From: an uncultured delta proteobacterium
GTDB taxonomy: Bacteria; Desulfobacterota; Binatia; UBA9968
Assembly (NCBI GenBank): GCA_963840855.1
Contig: CAWJBB010000072.1
Coordinates: 31,481-95,480, forward strand
Reading direction: 5' to 3'
Length of the DNA: 64,000 bases
Shown here piece by piece: positions 38,064 to 45,311 of this stretch. How positions within the stretch are numbered: position 1 is the stretch's first letter; the number at the start of each line of letters is the position of its first letter. Position numbers and translations under genes: made by a program. The notes beneath the pieces are model-generated. The model was not told the DNA's origin. It ran no database searches and saw only the letters and a list, made by a program, of their open reading frames with translations.

Positions 38064-38111
38064 TTGTTTTTCTCCTCAATCTAAAATCGGCAAATCATAA
38101 AATCGAAAATG

Positions 38112-39099
38112 TCATTTTATGACTCTGTCCGCCCGCGCCAGCACATTGGGCGGAATCGTCAGACCGATCTGTTTAGCCGCTTTCAGATTGATGATGAACT
38201 CGAACTTCTTTGGCTGCTCCACCGGAAGGTCGGCGGGCTTAGCACCTTTCAAAATCTTGTCCACGTAAGTAGCGGCGCGCCGGTCCAAGTCCGTATTGTC
38301 TCACGCCGTAGCTCATAAGCCCGCCGGCTTCCACAGATTCTCGCCTGTGCGTATATCGCCGGCAGCCGGCTCTTTACCGCGAGATCGAAAATCTGTGTTT
38401 GGTGAGCACTAAGGAGGGGGCCCGCCACCACAAGAACTGCCTCAGCGCGCCCTTGCTTGCGGCTCGGAATGCAGTCTCAATATCCTTCGGACCTCGTACG
38501 TCTAGGTATTGAAGCTTCACCCCGAACGACTTTGCGGCGAGTTCCATTTCTCTTAAAATGTGCGGTGCCCGGTCGGGTCGAAGTCCCCGAAGACGGCCAC
38601 GCGGGAGAGCTTAGGAATGACCTCCTTCAAAAGCTCCAGGCGTTTTCCGCTTAGCTCCGGGGCAAGGGTTGACAATCCGGTAATGTTCCCGCCCGGTCGC
38701 GCCAGGCTGGCGACGAACCCACTTCCAACAGGATCGCCAATCCTGCGTCATCACAATGGGAATCGTGACAGTTGCTTCCTTGGCGGCACTGGTTGGTCGC
38801 GCACCACCTGTGACAATGATGTCTACCTTGAGACGCACTAGCTCGGCCGCAAGCGCAGGCAGGCGATCGAGTTTTCCCTCTGCATATCGATACTCAATGA
38901 TGATATTTTCCCCCTCCACGTATCCAAGCTCGCGCAGCCCCTGGCGGAATGCGTCGACACGGGCCGCGATAGAGAGGAACGGAGCCGCATACAGGAATCC
39001 TATCCGCGGGGATTTTCGTTGGCTGCTGCGCCGCTGGCGGAAAAGCTAAGAGTCAAAAAGATGGCGCCCAGAGCAAAGACAAAGATTTCGTTTACTCAT
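38112..39099 (-). CDS. ABC_sub_bind-family substrate-binding protein broken by several frameshifts (paralog of 6904 gene)
   Basis: Fragments [63 protein letters not shown]. Confidence 0.85.
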
Positions 39100-39150
39100 C
39101 GAGTTTCTCCGCACTCCAAAGTTGGAAGACGAAACACATTGCGTCTTGTA

Positions 39151-39328
39151 CGTCATTCCCGTGAAAGCGGGAATCCAGTCATCTGTGCTCGTATTCCTCG
39201 CTGACGTCGGAAATCCAGCCTCTATGATTTCCTGACGTCATTCCGGCCAACTCATGCAAAGACTGAGCGCGGGCCGGATTCCAAAATGAGTTTAAGAAAC
39301 CTGGATTCCCGCTTGCGCGGGAATGACG
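39151..39328. repeat. dRS3-like palindromic repeat cluster
   Basis: cgtcattcccgtgaaagcgggaatccag (39151) and ctggattcccgcttgcgcgggaatgacg (39301-39328). Confidence 0.85.
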
Positions 39329-39372
39329 ATAGTGCAGGCCGACTGATTAATCGAAGCTTGTGAGACAGTACA

Positions 39373-40297
39373 CTAGCGAAATGTCTCCTTGATGTACCGG
39401 TACGCGGCGATGGCGGCGGTGGCGCCGTCGCCCGCCGAAGCGATCGCCTGAGCGGCGGAATCTTGACGGATATCGCCCACCGCGTAGAGACCGTCACGCT
39501 CGGTTTTCATCCAGCCATCCGTCGGCACATGCCCCGTATCGCTGAGCTTCAAGAGTTCTGCAAGAACGCCGTGTTCGGTTTCATGCCGACGTAAACGAAC
39601 AAACCGGCCAAATCGATTTGCGGACACTTCATCGGTCGCCAGATCGCGCACGCGCACGGCGCTCACAACCTCGTCGCCTAAAATTTCTTCCACTGCGGTG
39701 CGGTAGCGCGGCGCTATTTTCGCGTCGCTCAACGCTCGTTGGAGATAAGCATGCTGGCCGGAAAAATTTTCTCCGTCGGTGAAAAATCATGACCGATTCC
39801 GCGTAATTCGACAGAGTGAGCGCCTCCTGGAGCGCGGAATCGCCGCCGCCGACCACTCCTACCACTCGCTCATTGTAAAGCGGCCCGTCGCAGCTCGCGC
39901 AGTGGCTTACGCCGCGGCCCAGCAATTTTGCTTCGCCGGGAACTCCGAGTTCTTTAAGCGCCGAACCCGTGGCAACGATGACCGCCTTGGCCCGGTGGTT
40001 CTCTTCTGACGTTACCACTTGCCAGAAGCGGCCGTCCGCTTCCAGTCTTTGGACTTCCGCGCGTTGAAACTCGGCTCCTTGTTCCGCAGCCTGACGCTGT
40101 ACCGTTGGGCATAGGTCATATCCGGCGATTCCGTCCGGAAATCCGGGAAAATCCTCGATCTTCTCGATGCTGATCAAATGGCCGCCGGGAATGTTCGATT
40201 CCAGGATCAATGTGGAGAGGCCGTGGCGCGCGGCGAATAAGCCGGCAGTTAAGCCGCCGAGTCCCGAGCCGATGATCACAACGTCAAAATCTGCCAT
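39373..40297 (-). CDS. Thioredoxin-reductase-like FAD-dependent disulfide oxidoreductase (frameshifts around 39560-39780)
   Basis: IIGSGLGGL, IVATGS, GRGVSHCASCDG, VVGGGDSALQEA, HRR, GLYAVGD...A..GDGATAA. Confidence 0.9.
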
Positions 40298-40417
40298 GTC
40301 GAGTTCGTTTCTATGACGTTAAGCGTCTCTACGCCTTTCGACCGCTATCGCTCTCGTTCAGACCGTCGGAACTGATTCGAACGCTTGGAGACGTAAGGAA
40401 CGCTTGAAAGTTCGACG

Positions 40418-42079
40418 TTATCTCCACTCATCCACCGAAACCGTCTTCTGATAGTTGCAGCCCATAATGCGCCAGTAGCCGTTGGTTTCGCCACCGACCA
40501 CAACCACATGAATCTCGTCGGGTTTAAACATGCGTATCATCTCGTCCGGCGCGGCTTTGAGTTTCGAGGCATAGGGTTCCTCGCCGAAGGTCGCTCTGGG
40601 ATAAATATAGTTCTGAATCAGCTGATAGTCCCAATATTCGCCCGCCGGCATCAGCGCATTCTCGTAAACCCACTGGATGAGTTTTTCCTTGGTGTCGAAG
40701 CCGCCCCGGTCGATAAACTGCCGGGCCGCGATCGGATCGAGTAGAAAAGTCGGCGCGCTATGGGCGTCCATGCCGCGCAGCATGCTCTGTACATGCTGAC
40801 GCCAATATTTTTCCCGCACGCCGAGCGTAAACGCCGTGGAGCGGCAACCGGTGAAAATGCTCACTGTGCTGTCCGTCGGTTTGAATCCATGCTGCACGTG
40901 GAACGGCGCCCACGGACTGCGCTCTTCATTCTCGGCGAAGGTAGCAGTGCCGTAGGCGTAGCCGTTGCCCTGCGAGCCCATGTAACTGTCCCCCGGCAGC
41001 GAGCCGCCCTGAAGATTTTGCGATAGCAAACCATAAGCGCGCCCAATGGTGGCGTTGGCGTGGTTATAGGGCGCCATGGCGCCGGTGCCGGAGTTCATGG
41101 CGATCTCGTTACGGATCGGACCGTTGACGACAACCATCGCCGCCATCGAGCTAGTCGTGCTGCCGCGCGCGCTCACGCCGCTGGAGGCGAGCGCCAGTAT
41201 CACCGGAAAATACTCCGGTCGCGCCCCTGCCATCACCGCGTTGACGGCTACCTTTTCAACCGTAAATTCCCAGTACTGGCGAAATTGGTTCGAGCGCATA
41301 TGCCCCGCGACTTCGTCCGGTTTACGGCTCGTGTGCGCGAGCATTTCGCTCACCTTTTTTTCCGTCGGGAGAACGATCGGCAGTTTGTCCGTCCAATTAT
41401 TCTCCAGGAACAAACGATGCAGGTTCTCGTCCGTGTCGGAGTCCACCAGTCTCGGCGTCGAGCGCTCAAACTTGATCTCTTTAATGCGGTCTCCCTCGGC
41501 GGGACGCGTGAGCCCTTCGATGACTTCTTGCATCACCGGACGGCCGCTGATCGGGCTTTTGCCTTCGACATAGGCCCGTAGTTGTTCCGCCGTCTTGCCC
41601 ATGACCGGCTGAGGCACAAAAGTGTAACGCGCCTCGGGCATGCCGTGCATTCGGGTAACCGATTGCACCGCCTTCTCGAAGGCGTTTGTATGGATAGCAA
41701 CGGTGGGTACACCATATTTGCTATCGAGTGCGATTGCGTGCACGGCGACCGCCGGCGCGCAAGTGCTTCAATGGCCGACGCCGATGATGGCGCCGTCGCC
41801 GTTGGCTTTGATCATCTCCCAGGTTTTCGGATCGTCCTTGGTGTAGACGCTCGACATTTCCACGAGCTTCGTCTTCACCGAGGGCATGTGATCGGCGAAC
41901 CAATCTTGCACCTGGCGCAGAAAAAGTCCCGAGTCGTCAAAGCGCGGGTCGACCAGATAGACCGTCTTGCCGTCGAGGCTGTCGAGCCGCGGCGCCATTG
42001 GTTTCGGCGTGATCTTTGGTGGAAAGCCCACCGGATTGAGCACTGAAAGCTTTTGATTTTCGTTGGTTCCATTAGCCAT
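40418..42079 (-). CDS. Probable selenoprotein, 553 aa, UxxC motif (UGSC-family-like)
   Basis: ORFs 41768-42079 and 40418-41743 are in the same frame, separated by a single TGA in ...GVGH-TGA-STCAPAV... A GC-rich hairpin follows the TGA. Downstream domain carries NNWTDKLPIVLPT, NAVMAG, ANATIGRA. Confidence 0.85.
41735..41767 (-). promoter_or_regulatory. Candidate bacterial SECIS element
   Basis: UGA-agcacu-UGCGCGCCGGC-GGUC-GCCGUGCACGCA: stem-loop whose apical loop starts with G, ~17 nt after the UGA. Confidence 0.65.
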
Positions 42080-42214
42080 ATAAGGACCCTCCTCACCCTA
42101 TTTACGATCAAGTCCTCAACGAATCAACCGGTTTATGCCGGCGATGAAATATCAGCCTGGATTCGAGCCATTCCTGGCCATGATCGGTGCGTAAGGTCGT
42201 GACTATTTGATTAA

Positions 42215-42569: not shown

Positions 42570-44201
42570 GTGACCGGCCTGCAAAAAAGACTATTGGCAT
42601 TGATCGGCGGCCTCCTTTTTCTTCTCGCCCTGACAGCGCTTCTGTACATGGCCGGCATGACATATCTGGAGGATAAGCCGCGCGGCTTTTGGGACGCTCT
42701 GGAATGGGCCGGCGAGTCGTTATCGACTACCGGCTACGGCGCCGACTCCAAGTGGTCGCATCCTCTCATGGTCCTTTTCGTAGTGCTGGTGCAATTCATC
42801 GGCGTATTTCTGGTCTTTCTGGTTTTTCCAGTTTATTTGATTCCATTTCTCGAGGAACGCTTCGAGCCCCGCTTGCCCAAGGACACGCCTGACGTGCGCG
42901 ACCACGTGGTGATTTTCGATTACGGCCCACCGGTGGCGACGCTGCTCGAGGAACTGGAACGCGCCAATATCATCACGGTGGTGGTGGACGAAGATGAAGG
43001 CGACGCCCGGTGGCTGTTAGAGCGCAAGCACCGCGTCGTTTACGGCAAACTCGACGAAGGCGTGCTGCTGCACAGCCATCTGGAACAGGCCCGCGCCCTC
43101 ATCGTCAATAGCAGCGACGACCGCAATGCCGCCACGATTCTCGCCGCGCGCCAACTCGGCTATAAGGGTGAGATTCTGGCGTTGGTGGAGGATCCCTTTC
43201 ACCGCCGGCCGATCATTCTCGCCGGCGCTACCGCAGCGTATACACCGCGCCATGTTCTGGGCGCCGCGCTGGCGGCCCGCGCCAGCGAAAAAGTCAGTCC
43301 CACGGTGGCCGGTATACAGCAGCTGGGCCACAAGCTCCAGTTGAGCGAGGTGCGCATCCCTCGCCAGAGCGCGCTCGCCGGCAAGACGTTGGTGGAGGCC
43401 GATCTCGCCCACCACGCCGGCGTAACCGTAATCGGCCAGTGGGTCGGCGGTAAATTGGTTACTGCATCTCAGCAGGACATGCGGCTGGAGCCGGGCGGTA
43501 TTCTCGTGCTCGTCGGCGCACCGGAAAATATCCAAAGATTCATGGAGGTTTCCGGCGACGTCAAACAATTGCGCCGCCATGGCCCGTTCGTGGTCGCCGG
43601 CGGCGGCGAGGTAGGGCGCAAAGTCAACGAGCTGTTGCTCGATGCCGGCGAGCGGACTTTTCTCGTGGACGCGCAAGCAGGGCCGGAGGTAAATCTGGTC
43701 GGCAACGTGCTCGACACCAAAGTTCTTCAAGAAGCCAACATCAGCGACGCCCAGGCGGTGATCCTGGCTTTGAACGCCGATACCGCGACGCTCTTCACCA
43801 CAGTGATCGTCAAGGATATCGCTCCCGACGTACCGATCATCGCCAGGGTCAACCGCGCCGAAAACGTCGATCGAATCTATGCGGCGGGGGCCGACTTTGC
43901 GCTCTCCATCAGCCAGGTATCGGGACAACTCCTGGCCCGGCGGCTCCTCGGCAAGGAAGCCGTGGCCGTCGATTCGGAACTCCGGGTCACCAAGGTCACT
44001 GCGCGTGGCTTGGAAAATCGCCACCCCGATGAGCTGGGGATTAGCGCCAAGACCGGCTGTTCCGTGGTCGCCGTCGAGCGCGGCGACGAGTTGCTAGTGG
44101 AATTTGGCCGAGACTTTCGTTTTCAAAGCGGCGACACGGTATATATCTGCGGCAGCGCGGAAGCCACGCGAAAATTTTATGAGCTGTTTCCCCAGCAATA
44201 G
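42570..44201 (+). CDS. Potassium channel with two tandem TrkA-N/TrkA-C (RCK) modules
   Basis: Two TM helices around the LSTTGYG filter; two Rossmann-like RCK domains (HVVIFDYG, VVAGGGEVG) each followed by TrkA-C. Confidence 0.9.
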   Translation: MTGLQKRLLALIGGLLFLLALTALLYMAGMTYLEDKPRGFWDALEWAGESLSTTGYGADSKWSHPLMVLFVVLVQFIGVFLVFLVFPVYLIPFLEERFEPRLPKDTPDVRDHVVIFDYGPPVATLLEELERANIITVVVDEDEGDARWLLERKHRVVYGKLDEGVLLHSHLEQARALIVNSSDDRNAATILAARQLGYKGEILALVEDPFHRRPIILAGATAAYTPRHVLGAALAARASEKVSPTVAGIQQLGHKLQLSEVRIPRQSALAGKTLVEADLAHHAGVTVIGQWVGGKLVTASQQDMRLEPGGILVLVGAPENIQRFMEVSGDVKQLRRHGPFVVAGGGEVGRKVNELLLDAGERTFLVDAQAGPEVNLVGNVLDTKVLQEANISDAQAVILALNADTATLFTTVIVKDIAPDVPIIARVNRAENVDRIYAAGADFALSISQVSGQLLARRLLGKEAVAVDSELRVTKVTARGLENRHPDELGISAKTGCSVVAVERGDELLVEFGRDFRFQSGDTVYICGSAEATRKFYELFPQQ

Positions 44202-44384: not shown

Positions 44385-45311
44385 ATGAGCAACGACAAGG
44401 CGCCGTCCTCGTACGATTATGTTCCCCTGCCCGATCGTCGCCCGCTACGTTTTCCCAACGGCGCTCGGCTTGCCGTAATTCTCACCATCAACCTGGAATA
44501 CTGGGAAAAATTTCGGCCGGGGCAGAGAGAACCGCTTTTCACCGGCGGGCCGATGACCATACCCCACCCGCTGCCAGGCGATGTTTGGGACACCGCCAAC
44601 TGGACCTGGCGCGAATATGGGCAGCGAGTCGGCGTCTGGAGATTGATCGACGTCTTCGACGAGGCGGGAGTCAAGCCGTCCTGCACCGTGAACGGCATGA
44701 TCATGACCGAACGGAAACGCATCGTTGACGCCGTCAACCAGCGCGGTTGGGAGCTGGTGCCGCACAACTGGGCGCAAAACGACTTGCTCACCTACTATGC
44801 CGGGAAACCCGAATTAGAGCGCGCGGTTATCAAACGCACTCTGAAACAATATGTGCGCGCGATCGGGCGCCCGGCAAAGGCGTGGCTGTCATCAGCGCTC
44901 CGCGGCACCGTCTATACGCCGGCGTTTTTGAAGGAATTCGGCTTGATTGCCTACTGCGACTATTTGAACGATGACCAGCCCTATTTGATTCAAACCCACC
45001 ACGGCCCCATCGTCTGCGTGCCCTATTCCAATGACATCAACGATTTCAATCTATTCGCCCGCGGCGGCATGTCGGCATCCGCCGGACTGGAGACCCTCAA
45101 GGTTTGCTTCGGCCAACTCTACGCGGAAAGCGCCGCCAGCGGCCGCCTCATGAACTTCGGCATGCATCCGCACGTCATGGGCCAAGCGCACCGCATCGGC
45201 GCGTTGCGCGATTTCATCGGCTACGCCAAGTCGCATGAGGGCGTCTGGTTCGCGAGCCGCGAAGAAATCGCCACATGGTACCTCGATATCCACGAGGCGC
45301 ATATTTCATGA
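44385..45311 (+). CDS. Polysaccharide deacetylase family protein (PuuE/allantoinase-like)
   Basis: PNGARLAV, WREYGQRVGVWRL, NDDQPY, VPYSNDIND, MHPHVMGQAHR. Confidence 0.9.
   Translation: MSNDKAPSSYDYVPLPDRRPLRFPNGARLAVILTINLEYWEKFRPGQREPLFTGGPMTIPHPLPGDVWDTANWTWREYGQRVGVWRLIDVFDEAGVKPSCTVNGMIMTERKRIVDAVNQRGWELVPHNWAQNDLLTYYAGKPELERAVIKRTLKQYVRAIGRPAKAWLSSALRGTVYTPAFLKEFGLIAYCDYLNDDQPYLIQTHHGPIVCVPYSNDINDFNLFARGGMSASAGLETLKVCFGQLYAESAASGRLMNFGMHPHVMGQAHRIGALRDFIGYAKSHEGVWFASREEIATWYLDIHEAHIS

Follow-up and report, generated by a model that had tools for sequence, protein, structure and literature searches.

The locus described here lies in a 64,000-nucleotide stretch of DNA from an uncultured member of the Binatia (the window) and almost certainly encodes a selenocysteine (Sec)-containing protein of the UGSC family. 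The in-frame TGA at positions 41768-41770 on the minus strand encodes Sec, and gene callers have cut a real Sec gene in two. Taken as a whole, the locus is probably best explained as a two-gene selenium-dependent redox unit, in which the selenoprotein is accompanied by a flavoprotein resembling thioredoxin reductase (TrxB).

On the minus strand, an open reading frame at 42079..41771 (103 aa) is continued in the same frame at 41767..40421, and a single TGA parts the two. Reading through this codon gives a 553-aa product, ...GAIIGVGH-U104-STC-APAV..., from a complete gene at 40418..42079 (minus strand; 553 codons and a TAA stop at 40420-40418), with a Shine-Dalgarno-like GGAGG at 42088..42092 of the same strand, 8 nt 5' of the ATG at 42079. 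The gene is intact in the window and 93-95% identical to its relatives. In the homologue search, 7999 candidates were scored and 7141 of them reached E<=1e-3; the 12 full-length database homologues all align end to end with the selenoprotein, so that protein conservation is seen to continue across the UGA junction. Relatives of the gene number 505 in all. The codon for residue 104, in the motif H-U-S-T-C, was compared in 80 related loci (Binatia, Chloroflexota, Methylomirabilota/Rokubacteria and other phyla) and is TGA in 78 and TGC in two; Cys occupies this position in each of the 12 full-length database homologues. The original prediction had proposed a single chain with Sec in a UxxC motif, split by gene callers, and both its coordinates and its reading GVGH-U-STC are confirmed; the closest database relatives are all calls of 410-441 aa that begin 3' of the TGA. 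Among public sequencing runs, the best shared 0.30 of the window's sampled words and none reached half; the short-read contigs used for comparison therefore belong to relatives, not to this strain. Among the contig differences listed, which are a part of the total, none falls at 41768-41770, and we do not take this to confirm the TGA. Parts of the selenoprotein gene are also covered by contigs of an RNA library (X16), an observation that does not by itself establish transcription.

Folding and conservation both support a bSECIS-like hairpin at 41734..41762 (minus strand). Its upper stem pairs 41756-41751 with 41746-41740 (nt 15-20 with nt 25-31, counted after the U of UGA), and its apical loop GGUC (41750-41747) begins 17 nt 3' of the UGA, just where a GC-rich stem-loop had been predicted. 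For the 76-nt stretch the folding energy is -30.9 kcal/mol (z = -2.62), a value reached by 1 of 200 shuffles. The 78 Sec sequences do not differ over nt 13-28 3' of the UGA, apart from a T at nt 24 in one of them, and the six upper pairs form in every sequence; because the stem never varies, no covariation is possible. By contrast, both Cys forms (n=2) break the stem, with a minimum free energy of about -7 compared with a mean of -15.9 kcal/mol for the Sec forms. Third-position entropy averages 1.22 bit over the four-fold-degenerate sites and, in 77 Sec sequences, falls below 0.15 bit at only 5 of 131 conserved sites of this kind, namely residues 108-112, which lie inside the hairpin.

The genome carries selA, selB and selD together on one contig (C1:37592-42090). 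selA scores 616.3 bits, selD scores 382.6 bits and has one in-frame TGA of its own, and selB is present in two pieces (207.6 and 193 bits) in adjacent frames. The same genome holds five GrdB-family genes, each with one in-frame TGA, and additional UGSC-type genes with in-frame TGA. A check of the genome for Sec machinery had been proposed; it comes out positive for these three genes, with selB split, and selC was not found. In the genome search with RF01852, the top match, a tRNA-Ser, scored 43 bits and stayed under the threshold of 47; Aragorn returned no tRNA-Sec at default settings and seven relaxed candidates that had no Rfam match, and a search of the 20 kb that surround the sel genes gave no tRNA-Sec either. 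The assembly consists of 93 contigs with 94% completeness, and only 39 tRNAs were detected in it; we therefore regard the missing tRNA-Sec as a gap and not as a refutation.

The N-terminal UGSC domain (residues 13-172; 41564..42043, minus strand) matches PF24696 with 91.2 bits (cut-off 25), covering profile positions 2-160 of 172. Its U104-S-T-C107 is a UxxC that follows the third strand, the conserved place for this motif in the UGSC family. Resemblance to this family had been predicted, and it is borne out. The protein had also been presented as hidden, in the sense of not yet recognised; in fact, relatives at 86-90% identity carry the NCBI name 'UGSC family (seleno)protein', and a 'UGSC/Unknown_1 fusion' was described by Zhang and Gladyshev 2008 (PMC2398784). 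Two reviews (PMC13188914, PMC1976440) call the UGSC family uncharacterised. Thus, the protein is a member of an already known selenoprotein family and not new in kind. It shares with the family the PF24696 match above threshold, Sec in UxxC at the family position, the existence of Cys homologues and, as reported in 2008, the fusion to an unnamed conserved domain; its C-terminal domain is likely the 'Unknown_1' of that fusion. It differs in its motif, H-U-S-T-C instead of D-U-G-S-C, in its NF041046 score of 64.1 bits, under the equivalog cut-off of 125, and in the TrxB-like neighbour found in its own clade. What we add here is a flavodoxin-like model of the N-terminal domain, the homology to GrdB/PrdB, a C-terminal domain with no solved structural match, and the fused or adjacent pairing of the two domains in 29 of 30 loci.

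A thioredoxin-type redox domain had been predicted, and a thioredoxin fold is also the guess made for UGSC proteins in the literature. The AlphaFold2 model, which is confident over both domains (pLDDT 92.8, pTM 0.91), points elsewhere. Its N-terminal part alternates strands and helices (E39-44, H50-64, E69-74, H84-93, E96-102, H107-121, E126-131, H132-144, E152-155), and U104 is predicted to sit between strand 96-102 and helix 107-121. With VIA-align, the best match of this domain model has Z 11.0 and rmsd 4.7 over 137 aligned residues, further matches at Z 8-10 include receiver, B12-binding and flavodoxin domains, and thioredoxin is not among the named matches in the 50 rows listed for the predicted model. 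A Foldseek search of the PDB with the whole model gave nothing at E<=0.001; the best match, at E 0.002, was treated as chance-level. On the predicted model, the N-terminal domain would be a flavodoxin-like alpha/beta domain rather than a thioredoxin fold.

The relationship of the Sec region lies, instead, with selenoprotein B. A profile-profile comparison by hhalign of 25 UGSC with 6 GrdB-family Sec regions gave a probability of 97.2% and E 3.7e-11 over 90 columns, with Sec on Sec and the motifs EKxG(I/V)P and PHPxG in register; this register is set by the pattern of our own with which both alignments were cut around Sec. A single GrdB sequence gave a weaker result (probability 77.9%, E 1.9e-5). 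The GrdB profile was built from genome loci; the 120 listed database matches are calls of 259-383 aa that span 57-58% of the region searched, and these are useless for the Sec region because most are 353 aa long and end at the Sec codon. The selenoprotein had no match to PF07355 (Pfam, E up to 10) or TIGR01918 (NCBIfam, E up to 0.01). Judged by these profiles, the Sec region is homologous to selenoprotein B of the GrdB/PrdB type. Common to both (GrdB/GrdF/GrdH and PrdB on the one side) are a strand, U-G/S-S/T-C, a helix, EKxG(I/V)P and, about 50 residues later, PHPxG. In glycine, sarcosine, betaine and D-proline reductases, the selenol cleaves the bound substrate reductively with formation of a selenenylsulfide, and electrons are drawn from a dithiol or the thioredoxin system; grd operons carry trxB and trxA. 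However, the N-terminal part of GrdB is absent from the UGSC fusion protein, and selenoprotein B pairs with a pyruvoyl proprotein (GrdE/PrdA), whereas the partner here is the unrelated C-terminal domain. The hosts differ as well: the UGSC fusion occurs in soil Binatia, Chloroflexota and Methylomirabilota and selenoprotein B in amino-acid-fermenting anaerobes.

The C-terminal partner domain (residues 205-553; 40421..41467, minus strand) had been described as a domain of about 350 aa without a family, and scans of Pfam and NCBIfam indeed gave none. Its conserved motifs, taken from columns of 35 sequences with identity down to 29%, are WTDxLPIVxPTE, TVEKVAxNxVMAG, VNGP, NxANxxIGRA, AENEExSPW, VVGG and DxWR. 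The domain model is confident (pLDDT 90.0, pTM 0.89), and a comparison with 48,161 structure chains gave no match at Z>=5, the best having Z 4.1 and rmsd 3.2 over 80 aligned residues. Likewise, the profile of alignment A2 found nothing below E 0.1 among PDB sequences, leaving the domain without a PDB sequence match. Class I fumarate hydratase (the best Foldseek match, at E 0.013 only) and cyclic amide hydrolases (E 0.1 or weaker) were treated as chance-level and set aside. In the protein atlas, the same region of a natural Cys homologue (P0010, residues 200-550) led only to unnamed clusters and to one with the automatic name 'Thioredoxin domain-containing protein (Fragment)', from which no function follows.

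The partner domain accompanies UGSC whether or not the two are fused. In the same genome, a stand-alone UGSC selenoprotein adjoins a stand-alone gene for the C-terminal domain on each of two contigs, C86 and C82 (the UGSC proteins score 132.6 and 107.1 bits, respectively, on NF041046). Among 201 sampled genomes of the phylum there were 63 UGSC matches, 41 of them in open frames of at least 535 aa; in the 30 UGSC loci fetched from this sample, a coding sequence for the C-terminal domain is fused or within 1.5 kb in 29, including 14 of the 15 with a stand-alone UGSC gene. Pfam scans of 18 odd-length relatives for other fusion partners gave no thioredoxin and no reductase domain; matches to a Na+/H+ antiporter and a short-chain dehydrogenase in these relatives look like chimeric or fragmentary calls. 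Because the C-terminal domain is elsewhere a separate protein beside stand-alone UGSC, we regard the two as parts of one enzyme, and hold this to be very probable.

The TrxB-like gene (39373..40297, minus strand), delineated by its ORFs, profile matches and relatives, encodes a FAD/NAD(P)H disulfide reductase and begins at 40297, 120 nt downstream of the selenoprotein gene. Its position, its CASC motif and its TrxB character had been predicted and are confirmed, the last by a match to TIGR01292; what had been missed is that three 1-base indels break its reading frame. The first 222 aa, an ORF carrying HCASCDG and the N-terminal FAD-binding VVIIGSGLGG, score 199.5 bits on TIGR01292 and the further fragment 68.9 bits. 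The frame changes near 39764-39786 and again over a compensated indel pair near 39621 and 39554, after which 119 codons are open; the first indel lies near 39772-39776, inside the run gaaaattttt. Intact relatives of 307-308 aa map onto two frames of the window, and the short-read contigs of relatives have none of the three indels. These indels are probably assembly errors; being frame-broken in the window, the gene might also be a pseudogene in this organism. In common with TrxB, the protein has full-length similarity to TIGR01292, the FAD-binding motif GSGLGG and a CxxC centre (CASC); unlike TrxB, its intact relatives score below the equivalog cut-off of 343.45 (315.2, 329.1 and 300.4 bits), and the window copy is frame-broken. 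Two full-scoring TrxB genes (410 and 407 bits) lie elsewhere in the genome.

Linkage of the two genes, proposed as a check on the prediction, holds among close relatives and fades with distance. Of the 26 close loci with at least 1 kb of downstream DNA, 25 have the TrxB-like gene immediately downstream, whereas among 41 more distant loci 9 have it and 32 lack it; in most loci of relatives it is intact and 13-198 nt downstream. It is also absent from 29 of 30 other UGSC loci, and a distant stand-alone UGSC gene (locus L149) adjoins a TrxR-like gene. Linkage is thus clade-wide, a trait of one clade, and, missing as it is from so many distant and other UGSC loci, the TrxB-like neighbour is not a general requirement. 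When ORFs from 80 loci were clustered, a crude procedure given the spurious long ORFs in GC-rich DNA, the TrxB-like gene was the only neighbour conserved across phyla. TctC-type receptors, Amidohydro_2, CoA-transferase III, Zn-ADH and NMT1-like binding proteins recur within clades only.

From these data we infer that the enzyme works as a reductase, that its electrons come from the TrxB-like protein and that the C-terminal domain binds the substrate. The selenoprotein is most likely a Sec-dependent reductase that is recharged through the TrxB-like flavoprotein; to its being a thiol/selenol reductase fed by this protein we give even odds. In this model, SelB and the hairpin within the next 12 codons would decode the UGA at 41770-41768 as Sec. 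The C-terminal domain, bearing conserved polar residues, would bind the substrate, and the selenol of U104 would attack or reduce it. C107 would then resolve the intermediate with the formation of a selenenylsulfide with U104, which the TrxB-like flavoprotein would re-reduce with NAD(P)H, either directly or via thioredoxin. More tentatively, UGSC and its partner domain may represent a large and widespread enzyme family that is an offshoot of selenoprotein B, with an NAD(P)H-driven reductase in the soil H-U-S-T-C clade. The pyruvoyl subunit would have been replaced by a catalytic domain whose fold has no solved representative, and the H-U-S-T-C clade (soil Binatia, Chloroflexota), with a TrxB paralogue of its own, would be self-contained. 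The substrate would be a small molecule, and a carboxylate on it would be in keeping with the conserved arginines and acidic residues.

Other readings of the locus have to be weighed against this redox unit. If the TGA were a normal stop codon or came from an assembly error, the locus would hold a 103-aa gene and a separate 441-aa gene; gene callers annotate most relatives in this way, and the assembly does hold errors, in selB and the TrxB-like gene. However, the errors observed are indels and not substitutions, the same TGA recurs in 78 of the 80 loci across several phyla with Cys in the rest, protein conservation spans the junction, and synonymous sites in the hairpin are frozen in TGA forms only; the data already contradict this reading, and we give it next to no weight. 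A decaying unit, in which the TrxB-like gene and perhaps selB are pseudogenes and the selenoprotein is either not made or not recharged, is distinctly improbable. Three indels inside 250 nt of the TrxB-like gene, a selB spread over two frames and the presence of only short ORF fragments just downstream (38100-39200) would fit such decay. Yet two of the three indels cancel out, leaving 119 codons open after them, the one at 39772-39776 falls in the run gaaaattttt, and the selenoprotein gene is intact and 93-95% identical to its relatives; moreover, the short-read contigs of near relatives, though not of this strain, are free of the indels, as single-base assembly errors predict.

The Sec could also be real without the flavoprotein being its recharger or the enzyme a reductase, the TrxB-like gene being merely a clade-specific neighbour. 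Sec would then supply the catalytic nucleophile or acid-base group of an isomerase, lyase or transferase; alternatively, it would be a redox switch that regulates a C-domain enzyme whose own chemistry is not redox. In our reading of alignment A2, Cys is missing from the Sec position in 16 of 34 full-length homologues, which keep the C-domain motifs all the same, and the core chemistry of the wider family therefore need not be redox; this sample is biased, since database entries for Sec forms are cut short. The linkage missing from 32 of 41 distant and 29 of 30 other UGSC loci, and the 18 scanned odd-length relatives without a thioredoxin or reductase domain, point in the same direction. Against this stand the homology of the Sec region to a selenoprotein B that belongs to reductases, and the UxxC at a helix start, where resolving redox pairs usually sit. 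Similarly, 25 of 26 close loci include a TrxB paralogue distinct from the two housekeeping TrxB, and a TrxR-like neighbour recurs in a second, distant UGSC lineage. On balance, we consider a non-reductase, in any of these variants, unlikely.

The UGSC system is present here in a compact and testable form, with redox module and partner domain on one polypeptide. For annotation, the locus adds one more selenoprotein cut at its UGA by gene callers, and the nucleotide-invariant hairpin GCGCCGGCGGUCGCCG provides a simple marker of the H-U-S-T-C clade. The C-terminal domain is a good target for structure determination because its predicted model is confident and no solved structure matches it (best Z 4.1). 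If the UGSC proteins are indeed an offshoot of selenoprotein B, this would give a defined chemistry to a selenoprotein family that has been an orphan for roughly 20 years.

The selenoprotein gene extends on the minus strand from an ATG at 42079, with a GGAGG 8 nt upstream, to a TAA at 40420-40418, and contains one in-frame TGA at 41770-41768 (codon 104). As originally predicted, the two open reading frames separated by this TGA are in the same frame, and read-through gives a product of 553 aa containing GAIIGVGH-U104-STC-APAV. In a word-indexed protein search, 7141 proteins among 7999 scored candidates matched at E≤1e-3. Among the matches listed, all those with at least 82% identity are calls of 410-441 aa spanning 74-80% of the query, which makes them gene calls beginning past the TGA, in line with the prediction that gene callers split the gene; proteins of 546-569 aa share 66-71% identity with the query. 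Similarly, when 1.84 billion cluster representatives were searched exhaustively with HMMER, 4689 related clusters were identified at E≤1e-3 (525 at E≤1e-30), including many calls of 430-450 aa that start near residue 113-123 and are, again, truncated at the Sec codon.

That the TGA is a Sec codon is supported by the TGA/Cys pattern at this position together with the freezing of synonymous sites over the hairpin that follows it. The original prediction proposed a search for homologues with Cys or a retained TGA at residue 104, and both were found. Cys faces U104 in 12/12 aligned full-length homologues, within an invariant GVGH-C-STC-AP, while at the DNA level 80 related loci have TGA (78) or TGC (two) at codon 104. 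These loci come from species-representative genomes, whose labels include Candidatus Binatia, Chloroflexota, Rokuibacteriota/Methylomirabilota and Dormiibacterota. Folding reproduced the predicted GC-rich hairpin directly 3' of the UGA, with an apical GGUC loop beginning 17 nt past it; the 76-nt stretch has a folding energy of -30.9 kcal/mol (z = -2.62), which was equalled by 1/200 shuffles. Nucleotides 13-28 past the UGA, GCGCCGGCGGTCGCCG, are the same in 78 Sec sequences except for one T at nt 24, and all six upper base pairs are formed in 78/78; the stem is invariant and, therefore, shows no covariation. By contrast, the two Cys-encoding loci lack three or four of the pairs and have a local minimum free energy of ~-7 kcal/mol, compared to a mean of -15.9 in the Sec sequences. 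Over the 131 columns at which a four-fold-degenerate residue is conserved in 77 Sec sequences, third-position entropy averages 1.22 bit and is below 0.15 bit in only five, i.e. residues 108-112 (A-P-A-V-A), which code for the hairpin. The hairpin is under RNA-level selection confined to loci with UGA at codon 104, as predicted for a SelB-binding element, and these data demonstrate a SECIS-like element 3' of UGA104. In contigs from four public soil metagenome/metatranscriptome runs aligned to the window, coverage of the gene peaks in every run in the bin 41700-41795, where the Sec codon and hairpin lie (depth 62-278, mostly under 90 elsewhere), which fits with near-invariant nucleotides recruiting contigs from many organisms.

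Residues 13-172 (N-domain) match PF24696 (Pfam UGSC) with 91.2 bits (cut-off 25), and relatives at 86-90% identity bear the NCBI name "UGSC family (seleno)protein", bearing out the suggested likeness to this family; the score against the NCBIfam equivalog NF041046 (64.1 bits) is under its cut-off of 125. Residues ~175-553, which hold the C-domain (205-553), have no match in Pfam, even at E up to 10, or in NCBIfam, in agreement with the predicted fusion to a domain of unknown function. AlphaFold2, using a 35-sequence alignment, gave a confident two-domain model (pLDDT 92.8, pTM 0.91). In the modelled N-domain, strands and helices alternate, and U104 falls between strand 96-102 and helix 107-121. 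Receiver, B12-binding and flavodoxin domains are among its best solved matches (top Z 11.0, rmsd 4.7, 137 residues; many more at Z 8-10), and, as modelled, it seems different from the thioredoxin-like fold proposed in 2008. The C-domain modelled alone (pLDDT 90.0, pTM 0.89) matched 0/48,161 representative solved chains at Z 5 or more (top Z 4.1, rmsd 3.2, 80 residues), and the lowest E in a Foldseek search was 0.013. The UGSC-containing protein has been reported as a selenoprotein whose function is unknown (PMC1976440). It ranks among the major families in ocean metagenomes, where 255 forms have Sec and 21 have Cys, and is given a UxxC motif, a "likely" Trx-like fold and a "UGSC/Unknown_1 fusion" figured in the supplement (PMC2398784). 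It is still listed as uncharacterised in reviews of 2022 and 2026 (PMC9312934, PMC13188914), and the passages of these four sources that name UGSC selenoproteins assign no function.

UGSC matches were found in 24/201 sampled genomes of the phylum. Among these 63 matches, 58 have one TGA, and 41 lie in open frames of at least 535 aa and 22 in frames of less than 350 aa. In 30 fetched loci (match ±1.5 kb), C-domain coding sequence is present in 29, i.e. 15/15 with long and 14/15 with short frames; in the latter, the C-domain gene is mostly upstream on the same strand. The source genome has both arrangements: two further fused paralogues with an in-frame TGA (UGTC motif on contig C30, UGSC motif on C24) and a broken copy on C23, and, on C86 and C82, a stand-alone UGSC selenoprotein (NF041046, 132.6 and 107.1 bits, respectively) with the C-domain encoded downstream by a gene of its own (360-375 aa). 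Because the two domains are fused in some lineages and adjacent in others, they bear the classical sign of being two parts of one enzyme. On C82, the two genes are separated by a gene resembling a DUF559 endonuclease (PF04480, 144.5 bits; L119:1861-2325), apparently as the result of an insertion. Intergenic DNA flanking the paralogues on C86, C24 and C23 gives FKSFK/FQSFQ runs when translated in one frame (in locus L118 at about 2130-2280 and about 1000-1040), indicating short tandem repeats that recur next to several of the UGSC loci in the source genome.

Over 34 full-length homologues with identities down to 29%, the C-domain motifs WTDxLPIVxPTE, TVEKVAxNxVMAG, VNGP, NxANxxIGRA, AENEExSPW, VVGG and DxWR are near-invariant, while the Sec position lacks a Cys in 16/34 as read by eye, in a sample biased by the truncation of Sec forms in the database. 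This argues that the catalytic core probably sits in the C-domain.

As predicted, a TrxB-like gene with HCASCDG begins at 40297, 120 nt past the selenoprotein gene. However, its frame is broken, which the original prediction missed: it consists of minus-strand ORFs in different frames at 40297-39629 (222 aa) and 39732-39373 (119 aa), and intact 307-308-aa relatives align to two frames of the window, matching part of the second only poorly. Where at least 1 kb of sequence is available past the selenoprotein gene, and leaving out one locus without a gene end, a TrxB-like gene begins within 1.6 kb downstream (mostly 13-198 nt) in 25/26 close loci (protein at least 78% identical to the 553-aa product) but in only 9/41 more distant ones; the linkage expected originally is, thus, largely restricted to close relatives. 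Among the 30 UGSC loci, a single distant stand-alone one (L149) has an adjacent TrxR-like gene. Three intact relatives score 300-329 bits against TIGR01292 (cut-off 343.45) and two full-scoring TrxB genes are present elsewhere in the source genome (410 and 407 bits), which makes the neighbour an extra TrxB paralogue.

The broken frame results from three single-base indels, all absent from short-read soil metagenome contigs of close relatives. Behind 39554, one base is added (one contig each in runs X3 and X7); at 39621, contigs have one base fewer (two in X3, one each in X7 and the RNA library X16), as they do at 39772 or 39776 (2 + 1 in X3, one in X1). Although the contigs come from relatives rather than from this strain, single-base assembly errors would predict the absence of all three indels from them. 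Because selB is also split, two of the three indels compensate each other and the 39772-39776 site is part of the run gaaaattttt, we regard assembly error as a likelier explanation than true decay of the gene in this organism.

Further downstream, 38100-39200 contains only short overlapping fragments, of which the minus-strand ORF 38919-38611 resembles, by eye, a piece of a periplasmic substrate-binding protein; the stretch is either another gene with a broken frame or carries additional assembly indels. The inverted repeat cattcccgcgcaagcgggaatc is present at 39304-39326, immediately 3' of the stop codon of the TrxB-like gene. Because summed contig depth in the 96-nt bin 39300-39395 is 75-1698 in all four runs, compared to mostly single or double digits outside it, this repeat appears to be a palindromic element that recurs widely, or else a shared terminator. 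On the plus strand, a 308-aa ORF (44385-45311) without a Pfam match at E≤0.001 adjoins a TrkA-N/TrkA-C channel-like gene (42570-44201).

The source genome (7.1 Mb, 93 contigs, completeness 94%, contamination 8%) encodes selA (616 bits), selB and selD (383 bits) side by side on contig C1; selD has an in-frame TGA of its own, and selB is divided between two adjacent frames (208 and 193 bits; C1:38613-40500). Of the machinery that the original prediction called for, only selC (tRNA-Sec) escaped detection, both with Rfam and with aragorn; as only 39 tRNAs were detected in the assembly, we read this as a gap. A ~115-nt stretch between selA and selB (C1:40574-40690; L168:12575-12691) matched the same Rfam model on both strands and is, therefore, a long palindrome and not tRNA-Sec. 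The genome also has five GrdB-family "selenoprotein B" paralogues, each with one in-frame TGA (C74, C30, C46, C49 and C61, in L158, L161, L164, L165 and L167, respectively; TIGR01918, 390-478 bits). This is an unusual number for this soil Binatia-like genome; to our knowledge, the lineage is not known for Stickland-type fermentation.

The Sec regions of UGSC and GrdB/PrdB proteins are alike, with a hydrophobic strand, U-G/S-S/T-C, a helix and EKxG(I/V)P, and with PHPxG ~50 residues further on. Using hhalign, the alignment of full-length homologues matched one GrdB-family protein of the source genome Sec on Sec (probability 77.9%, E 1.9e-5). A profile built from 25 UGSC Sec regions matched one built from 6 GrdB-family regions over 90 columns (probability 97.2%, E 3.7e-11); both sets were taken from genome loci and trimmed around Sec by pattern, so that the register is fixed, and the score derives from the columns on either side. 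In the reductases of glycine and D-proline, attack of the selenol on a substrate held by a partner subunit gives an adduct, which an adjacent Cys converts to a selenenylsulfide; the selenol is then regenerated by a dithiol or thioredoxin system, and both trxB and trxA are present in grd operons. However, the selenoprotein matched no GrdB/PrdB HMM in Pfam or NCBIfam, and its partner is the unnamed C-domain in place of a pyruvoyl subunit. Therefore, we suggest that it works like, rather than is, a GrdB/PrdB protein.

The selenoprotein is real and its originally predicted anatomy is correct. Beyond the demonstrated gene, Sec codon, SECIS-like element, family and domain pairing, the chemistry and electron path that we infer as best supported are those of a Sec-dependent reductase. 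In this model, the unnamed C-domain would be the core that binds the substrate, Sec-dependent reduction of the substrate would yield a selenenylsulfide, and the TrxB-like flavoprotein would recycle it. The locus is a new member of the known, functionally orphan UGSC family and not a new kind of system; what is distinct in this member is that it belongs to an H-U-S-T-C clade, is fused to the C-domain and is accompanied by a TrxB paralogue.
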